Source of the DNA: Octopus vulgaris
Taxonomy: Eukaryota
DNA: 64,000 nt
Assembly: GCA_951406725.2 (NCBI GenBank)
Contig: OX597814.1
Span: forward strand, 136,958,001 to 137,022,000
Direction: 5' to 3'
Both the position numbers and the translations under genes were made by a program. Shown here piece after piece: positions 6,502 through 51,040 of this stretch. Each line of letters starts with the position of its first letter. Position 1 is the first letter of the stretch. The notes beneath the pieces are model-generated. The model was not told the DNA's origin. It made no database searches and worked only from the letters and a program-made list of their open reading frames with translations.

Positions 6502-6601
6502 TTAAATGAAAACACGTATAACAGTAAGAATCAACACAAGCAGAAGAGCAGTTTGTTTTAGCGGTGGAGCAGCGGCTACACGGCAGCGGATTGAATCAAA
6601 T
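6502..6601 (-). CDS. Terminal coding exon 7 ([32 protein letters not shown]), GPI-signal-like
   Basis: Strong poly-T tract + attacAG acceptor; phase 2 fits; supplies the Cys matching module 1's last Cys; hydrophobic tail, then TAA at 6504-6502. Confidence 0.83.

Positions 6602-51040: not shown

Follow-up and report, generated by a model that had tools for sequence, protein, structure and literature searches.

A two-module GPR158/179-type Cache protein of Octopus vulgaris with a GPI-type tail and no receptor domain

The window analysed here is a 64,000-nucleotide stretch of the Octopus vulgaris genome (contig OX597814.1, positions 136,958,001 to 137,022,000). On its minus strand, seven exons bounded by AG and GT join into an 877-aa frame that closes with a TAA stop. 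All six introns run from GT to AG with compatible phases in our splice reconstruction. The coding part of exon 1 (50088..51040, aa 1-318) specifies a signal peptide (aa 1-28, 50957..51040), predicted purely from hydropathy, and most of the Cache core of a first module, A (module A profile, E 3e-133). An N-terminal hydrophobic segment is also found in most full-length homologues. Exon 2 (39648..39777, aa 318-361) adds the final Cache strand of module A, including D326, and the beginning of an EGF-like part, which is completed by exon 3 (15166..15331, aa 362-417). Exon 4 (12907..13921, aa 417-755) encodes a poorly ordered linker and the Cache core of a second module, B (module B profile, E 3e-109). 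The final Cache strand and the EGF-like start of module B lie in exon 5 (11600..11714, aa 755-793) and the remainder of the EGF-like part in exon 6 (8749..8903, aa 794-845). The coding part of exon 7 (6502..6601, aa 845-877) contributes the last cysteine, a small-residue stretch, a hydrophobic tail and the stop. The resulting layout is signal peptide, module A (29 to about 417), linker, module B (514-851) and tail, and the only strongly hydrophobic segments of the protein are N-terminal (about 5-23) and C-terminal (about 859-877). Upstream of the start codon, on the minus strand at 51041-51076, there is a splice acceptor at a distance of 36 nt together with a short out-of-frame upstream ORF, and the lengths of the contigs described below imply an additional non-coding 5' exon ahead of coding exon 1.

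Over 783 aa, the predicted protein matches an O. vulgaris 'hypothetical protein' (CAI9716021.1), whose model begins at Met95, at 100% identity, and it shares 875 of its 877 residues with isoform X1 of O. sinensis LOC115215517. The gene is already present in databases as an uncharacterised model. An earlier note on this DNA had proposed the seven phase-compatible exons and the 877-aa product, and both splicing with translation and the database models bear this out. Further support comes from contigs of four sequencing runs in four studies, which we compared with window positions 7490-9340. The RNA nature of these runs is an automatic guess, yet the contigs are spliced. Each run yielded one contig (2836, 2829, 1841 and 2894 nt) covering exactly exon 6, and in all four the overhangs match the end of exon 5 on one side and the beginning of exon 7 on the other. 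The contigs extend 225-230 nt past exon 6, across the stop and through a 3' UTR (6372..6501), up to a (CATA)n repeat at which they stop, so the true 3' end may differ. The comparison covered exon 6 and its flanks; the remaining junctions rest on database models and homology. Among the contigs of the four runs, which can drop rare isoforms, no junction other than exon 5-6-7 was present. A class-C 7TM profile built from relatives, which matched 21 of the collected proteins, had no match in any of the window's six frames (best E 0.19). The junctions at this end of the gene and the absence of a 7TM domain, both put forward in the earlier note, are thus corroborated.

Tail-less isoform models exist in O. 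sinensis (RefSeq X2, 845 aa) and O. bimaculoides (846 aa) and arise by read-through of exon 6. In the window, reading past the exon 6 donor leads to an immediate stop (8746-8749), and such a tail-less product might perhaps be secreted. None of the contigs from the four runs enters intron 6 and the bin depths fit exon-only cover, although rare forms can drop out.

Modules A and B are homologous within the window protein (phmmer E 2e-10), and their family profiles align over 314 columns with 23% identity (probability 99.9%, E 7.8e-33). Introns of phase 2 and of phase 0 sit at corresponding spots in A and in B. Together, the profile match and the matching intron phases and places point to a tandem duplication of a gene segment. 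The Pfam family PF22572 (GPR158_179_EC) matches twice in the O. bimaculoides orthologue, which is 93% identical (E 2.6e-40), and twice in each of the seven full-length homologues scanned; single window exons gave Pfam matches below threshold only. The best sequence matches in the PDB are GPR158 and GPR179 (E 3e-16). An AlphaFold2 model of the O. sinensis orthologue based on 88 sequences reached a pLDDT of 87.9 and a pTM of 0.85; confidence was low chiefly within the linker (440-487 and 504-511). In Foldseek, the top matches were GPR179 (E 2.5e-11), a bacterial dCache domain and GPR158, and a second structure search, which mainly concerned module B, returned bacterial dCache domains at Z 8-12. 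Module A folded alone, with a fragment alignment headed by a cuttlefish paralogue, gave a pLDDT of 47.6 and a pTM of 0.40; its fold is assigned from the two-module model, its profile match to B and Pfam. Two homologous Cache-like plus EGF-like modules, their kinship with GPR158/179 and a double hit to the ectodomain profile had been anticipated, and all three were found, the double hit in the orthologue. We regard the receptor-less architecture with two Cache-EGF modules as nearly certain.

Word-index searches and a full HMMER search yielded a family set of 497 proteins, many of them fragments or near-copies, of which 275 contain both modules complete. None of these 275 carries a 7TM domain, with lengths of up to 2000 aa admitted in the searches. 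They end in a hydrophobic tail no longer than 45 residues in 259 cases; nine have none, five are less hydrophobic and two are long. After thinning to below 75% identity, the corresponding numbers among 61 representatives are 55, 3, 2 and 1. Named members come from molluscs, annelids, an orthonectid, flatworms (including schistosomes), a nematomorph, a tardigrade, crustaceans and insects, and divergent two-module forms from one rotifer and one nemertean. No deuterostome, cnidarian or nematode two-module protein is named among the best 120 of 376 and the best 150 of 1414 matches, which is weak evidence, with several matches unnamed. Molluscs have two subfamilies, one of which contains the window gene, and octopus has at least three genes. 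The gene is a member of a conserved protostome family characterised by a signal peptide, two Cache-EGF modules, a GPI-type tail and no 7TM domain.

Some relatives depart from this pattern. P0130, P0162 and P0163 (from Haliotis, Lineus and Batillaria) are divergent two-module proteins that end after the second Cache core, and two of them also seem to be without the first EGF part; they are possibly secreted offshoots or incomplete models. P0141, P0191 and P0495 are very divergent members with long inserts. One of them is from a bdelloid rotifer, and P0141 has a proline-rich stalk ahead of a short hydrophobic end.

In a tree of 76 modules, A modules, B modules and receptor ectodomains each fall on one side of a branch (SH-aLRT 99, 96 and 99); this is a quick tree with SH-aLRT support only, in which two long branches meet. 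The modules of the window protein lie inside the A and B branches of the family. Both branches roughly track animal phylogeny, which suggests that the fusion is older than the arthropod/mollusc split. Profile scores against 7TM receptors are mostly about 70-95 bits for module A and 120-150 bits for module B, which places A at the greater distance. The nearest relatives by sequence are one-module GPR158-type 7TM receptors (CG31760-like), which are closer to module B. They have pocket residues in common with module A (PY-x-D-C, W-x-x-T and the Asp of the last strand), but differ in occupying the separate receptor branch and in combining a single module with a 7TM domain.

The earlier note had suspected uncharacterised invertebrate homologues, and these do exist, as the Octopus models, the 275 two-module proteins and the fly gene CG31195 illustrate. 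The fly label is taken from a Bactrocera study; the first approximately 230 residues of its CG31195 protein (802 aa), compared by eye, closely resemble D. simulans GD20036 (PMC4652233). Drosophila members are 807-810 aa long. Family relatives, including Anopheles AGAP001418 and UniRef entries named 'GPR158/179 extracellular domain-containing protein', have the same architecture, and an ESM Atlas cluster of 1026 members bears this name automatically. The Bactrocera study found the homologue by LC-MS in secretions of the male accessory gland (PMC4652233); this only observation of a fly protein thus concerns a reproductive gland, not nervous or sensory tissue. Other papers mention CG31195 as a marker and as a gene nested in an intron of Syp. 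Our literature search, which was thin on subscription papers, returned no paper describing this architecture or the function of CG31195.

CG16791/argus was considered as a fly orthologue and rejected. Two cloning primers and one guide listed in the supplementary data of PMC8177895, once translated, match nowhere in six Drosophila family members (at best 4 of 6-7 residues agree), and the second methionine lies at position 15, not 52. Since argus is not the orthologue, the sleep phenotype described in that paper is not applicable to the family.

The C-terminus contains the elements of a GPI signal (aa 854-877, 6505..6576, minus strand). The pattern is complete, with an N-terminal signal, a small-residue site, a spacer, a terminal hydrophobic stretch and no cytoplasmic tail, and likely attachment residues, judged from this pattern, are A854 or A855. 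The family consensus of the small-residue stretch is C-R-[LIV]-A-G-A-S-S. The hydrophobic stretch is 15-19 residues long and, in the 61 representatives, is followed by a median of 3 residues. The median distance from the last cysteine to the end is 29 residues. The sequence of the tail shows no conservation, and in several homologues the last residues are basic. We infer that the tail is a GPI anchor signal on module B. The stop directly after a short hydrophobic tail had been described correctly in the earlier note, whereas its placement of this tail at the position of TM1 does not hold. The tail starts about 12 residues past the last cysteine, and the protein ends after the first cysteine of what is, in receptors, a further four-cysteine stalk before TM1. 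The tail replaces this distal stalk together with TM1 and is out of register with the latter.

The linker between the modules contains two furin-type sites. The first, RKKR (aa 446-449, 13824..13835, minus strand), has counterparts of the form RxxR elsewhere: 34 of 47 non-arthropod representatives carry one among their first 45 linker residues, a count without a control set. The second, RFRR (aa 510-513, 13632..13643, minus strand), directly precedes module B. RxKR or RxRR lies at most 32 residues before B in 44 of the 47, against a mean of 4.2 and a maximum of 11 in 1000 shuffles of the linkers. A furin-type site is missing anywhere in the linker in all 14 arthropod representatives. The linker is otherwise unconserved and varies from 26 to 228 aa (arthropod median 44 aa). 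According to the profile alignment, a B chain cut at the second site would begin in register with mature A. Eight cysteines are conserved in each module and are able to pair internally, and an extra one, C152, is variable. With no conserved cysteine pair left over, two cleaved chains would be held together non-covalently. On the strength of the known furin consensus, the chain is probably cut at these sites in molluscs, annelids and flatworms, so that the mature form would be a two-chain heterodimer.

We modelled the two putative chains (29-425 and 514-853) together in ESMFold2 without alignments. The pairing score was 0.83 in three runs, whereas the best of three controls scored 0.00. In calibration on microbial proteins, the pairing mark was reached by 51 of the 78 solved complexes and by 2 of the 108 mismatched pairs; the eukaryotic figures were 39 of 65 and 2 of 126. 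At least 57% of contacts were common to the runs, and the partner had a pLDDT of at least 80, module A only 61-63. A similar complex, the GPR158 dimer, has been solved, so that the score may be learnt and shows likeness, not binding. In the predicted interface, helix 1 of A lies on helix 2 of B and vice versa, and the best contacts connect F574 and Y578 of B with M128, S129 and A132 of A. The GPR158 dimer has an alpha4-alpha5' arrangement with F135/M139 facing W156'/L160' (PMC8611064). Octopus F574/Y578 and Y125/S129 are the aligned equivalents of these cluster residues, and R570, E605 and Y125 are invariant in all 61 representatives. Against this pairing, conservation at the interface is only marginally higher than elsewhere in A (0.51 vs 0.41, p=0.047) and no higher in B (0.40 vs 0.41, p=0.53). 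Modules A and B are predicted to pack through the two N-terminal Cache helices in the manner of GPR158 protomers. The pseudo-dimer proposed in the earlier note finds support at the level of the model; that it is a single chain probably does not hold for molluscs, annelids and flatworms, in which the furin sites occur.

To locate the ligand pocket, we aligned the modules via GPR158 and published dCache motifs (PMC8915833 and PMC10589655). Seven positions in A (R176, D199, Y207, W217, Y284, D286 and D326) are all kept, or conservatively changed, in 57 of 61 representatives. The seven equivalents in B are all kept in 5 of 61, and losses mostly affect Y724, the acid at 726 and D761. These positions were picked post hoc from conservation tables, and the counts are descriptive. 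Only module A seems to retain a ligand pocket. The dCache_1AA motif YxxxxRxWY ... Y ... D is absent, and 11 regex matches in module B sit in the EGF/stalk part. In dCache amino-acid sensors, the Arg of this motif binds the carboxylate (PMC8915833). This Arg, two positions ahead of the Trp, is found in none of the 61 A modules and in 2 of the 61 B modules. The position equivalent to GPR158 R173, a residue with a role in glycine binding, is Gly or Ala in module A and Ser or Gly in module B. Glycine binding is not supported by these alignments. What module A retains is the amino-group-binding half and an Arg-Asp pair resembling that of amine sensors. With the Arg of the amino-acid motif gone and these elements left, our loosely held guess is that module A binds an amine or other cation rather than a free amino acid; the case of GPR179 illustrates that a pocket of this kind may persist with no small ligand known for it (PMC11437087).

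Bacterial dCache_1AM amine sensors (PctD, McpX and PacA; also CqsR) are the top structural matches of the module B core, with Z 11.9-10.7, an rmsd of 2.8-3.1 Å over 144-154 residues and 11-23% identity in the top rows. This ranking, however, was obtained for the module whose pocket is degenerate, with ties among the top rows and amino-acid sensors only about 1.5 Z below. From sequence reasoning only, the residues of the dCache_1AM motif (R103, D133, W155, F188, M215, S217 and D235 in PctD) have plausible counterparts in module A, among them apparent equivalents of the Arg-Asp pair, the aromatic pair and the last Asp. The context differs, as the octopus protein is eukaryotic, EGF-linked and putatively anchored.

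The protein is akin to the ectodomain dimer of GPR158 (mGlyR) and GPR179, with which it has the Cache and EGF-like ectodomain in common and, if the pairing model holds, dimerisation through the two helices. Because it has no 7TM domain, it stands outside the receptor family. Unlike the GPR158/GPR179 homodimer, it combines two diverged modules in one gene. It does not have the distal four-cysteine stalk, the 7TM domain, the RGS7-binding tail or an Arg at the R173 position, and has instead a GPI-type end and a furin-type linker.

Taken together, we propose that the protein is a GPI-anchored, asymmetric Cache pseudo-dimer in which module A binds a ligand, module B acts as scaffold and a separate partner passes on the signal, a proposal to which we give an even chance. 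On module B, a GPI anchor would take the place of the hydrophobic tail. The linker of about 64 residues would be cut out by a furin-type convertase in octopus and other spiralians, so that A stays non-covalently held on B, whereas arthropods would keep a single chain. Module A, with its pocket residues and no carboxylate-binding Arg, would bind a small ligand, for which an amine or other cation is a likelier candidate than a free amino acid, and module B would serve as scaffold and anchor. Since the protein has no cytoplasmic part, it might act as a co-receptor or as a ligand-presenting or ligand-buffering subunit for a separate transmembrane partner.

Alternatively, the protein may be an adhesive or matrix-binding surface protein whose Cache pseudo-dimer binds a protein or a heparan-sulfate proteoglycan, the pocket residues being structural. 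We consider this somewhat unlikely, though a serious contender. The conservation of the pocket in module A could indeed be structural, A being further from 7TM receptors than B. The conservation of the whole chain is also high, with 63-74% identity between Daphnia and other arthropods, the top match excepted, among the best 120 of 376 matches listed. The gene sinu functions in septate junctions. CG31195 has miR-184 sites, as does sinu (PMC5727397). A precedent for protein binding is GPR179, which keeps several pocket residues, yet gives no glycine response and acts through pikachurin, bound via Cache loops (PMC11437087). Against this reading, the polar residues lining the pocket are kept in one module only; the modules have similar folds in the model, so constraints of a purely structural kind would be expected in each of them.

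The tail could also be an uncleaved single-pass anchor with no cytoplasmic part instead of a GPI signal, which we find improbable and which is compatible with the other readings. The length of the hydrophobic stretch and the basic ends of several homologues would suit such an anchor, but the conserved small-residue stretch stands at the right distance after the last cysteine and the tail sequence itself is free to vary.

A further possibility is an auxiliary subunit for the trafficking or gating of a channel or transporter, resembling alpha2-delta, with cleavage as a maturation checkpoint. The delta part of alpha2-delta is GPI-anchored. Alpha2-delta and CACHD1 are extracellular multi-Cache proteins that are proteolytically cut and have one active pocket, as would be the case for the octopus protein. 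Alpha2-delta is attached to the membrane, and the channel's function is gated by cleavage of this Cache protein (PMC5092059). Of its two dCache units, just one retains the motif, which resembles the A/B asymmetry in octopus (PMC8915833). Yet a VWA domain found no match in our domain scans, and the AlphaFold2 secondary structure corresponds to two serial modules, not to a nested dCache_1. The Cache units are of the GPR158 lineage, each with an EGF part, and are without the amino-acid motif. In addition, no spare conserved cysteine pair could evidently bridge the chains, and all 14 arthropod representatives are without the cleavage sites. We therefore consider this reading distinctly doubtful.

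We give similarly little credence to a split class C receptor system, in which module A, freed by furin, is shed or handed to orphan 7TM receptors and sets their ligand specificity. The narrower version, in which freed A joins the ectodomain of an orphan 7TM receptor of the GPR158 type as an exchangeable ligand-binding subunit and signals in this way, appears slimmer still. The receptors have homologous dimer helices, the cut would leave A without a membrane anchor, and invertebrates have many one-module 7TM relatives (7tm_3 in 16 of 31 proteins scanned). On the other hand, arthropods do not have the cut, and the invariant residues R570 and E605 of B are complementary to R99 and D133, likewise invariant, of A, which suggests that A and B are dedicated to each other. 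The 7TM relatives also show the same pocket residues in the stretches compared, so that no donor would be needed.

That the model is a truncated GPCR whose real transcript skips exon 7 into 7TM exons is hardly credible: contigs can drop rare isoforms and P0160 has a repeated Cache-EGF unit before its 7TM domain, but the copies in P0160 are almost letter-identical, which suggests an artefact of the gene model or the assembly, exons 6 and 7 are joined in all four runs, and neither the window nor any of the 275 two-module homologues contains a 7TM domain.

The gene sequence is already in databases; what is new is the receptor-less two-module architecture and the mechanism we infer from it. GPR158-type receptors are mostly orphans, and in the papers we consulted their Cache ectodomain is described only as part of a 7TM receptor. 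Here, a GPR158-type dimer appears to have been fused in one gene before the protostome radiation, uncoupled from its receptor and made asymmetric. Deep conservation without a signalling domain implies a ligand and a partner. Both can be directly tested in Drosophila (CG31195) and with the soluble, easily expressed ectodomain, which may also serve as a structural model for ligand-bound GPR158-type Cache domains. If true, the split system would constitute a soluble or anchored sensing subunit for class C GPCRs, of which we know of no example.

The introns of the gene contain remnants of mobile elements. Intron 2 holds a 701-codon non-LTR retroelement frame on the minus strand (24376-26478; RVT_1 E 6.5e-23 and a weak zf-RVT match). 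It adjoins a near-pure (ATT)n array of about 3.2 kb (21040-24250) with register shifts near 22412 and 24040 and a GC content of zero over 22001-24000. This array may be an expanded tail of the retroelement or an assembly effect. Broken pieces of a piggyBac-like DDE_Tnp_1_7 (16457-17091, plus strand) and a mariner-like Transposase_1 (37086-37427, plus strand) also lie in introns, as does a weak GIY-YIG (Penelope-like) fragment (46736-47056, minus strand). Finally, intron 6 harbours a short high-copy element (8531-8667), probably a transcribed SINE, over which the contig depths of each of the four runs sum to some 10,000-22,000.
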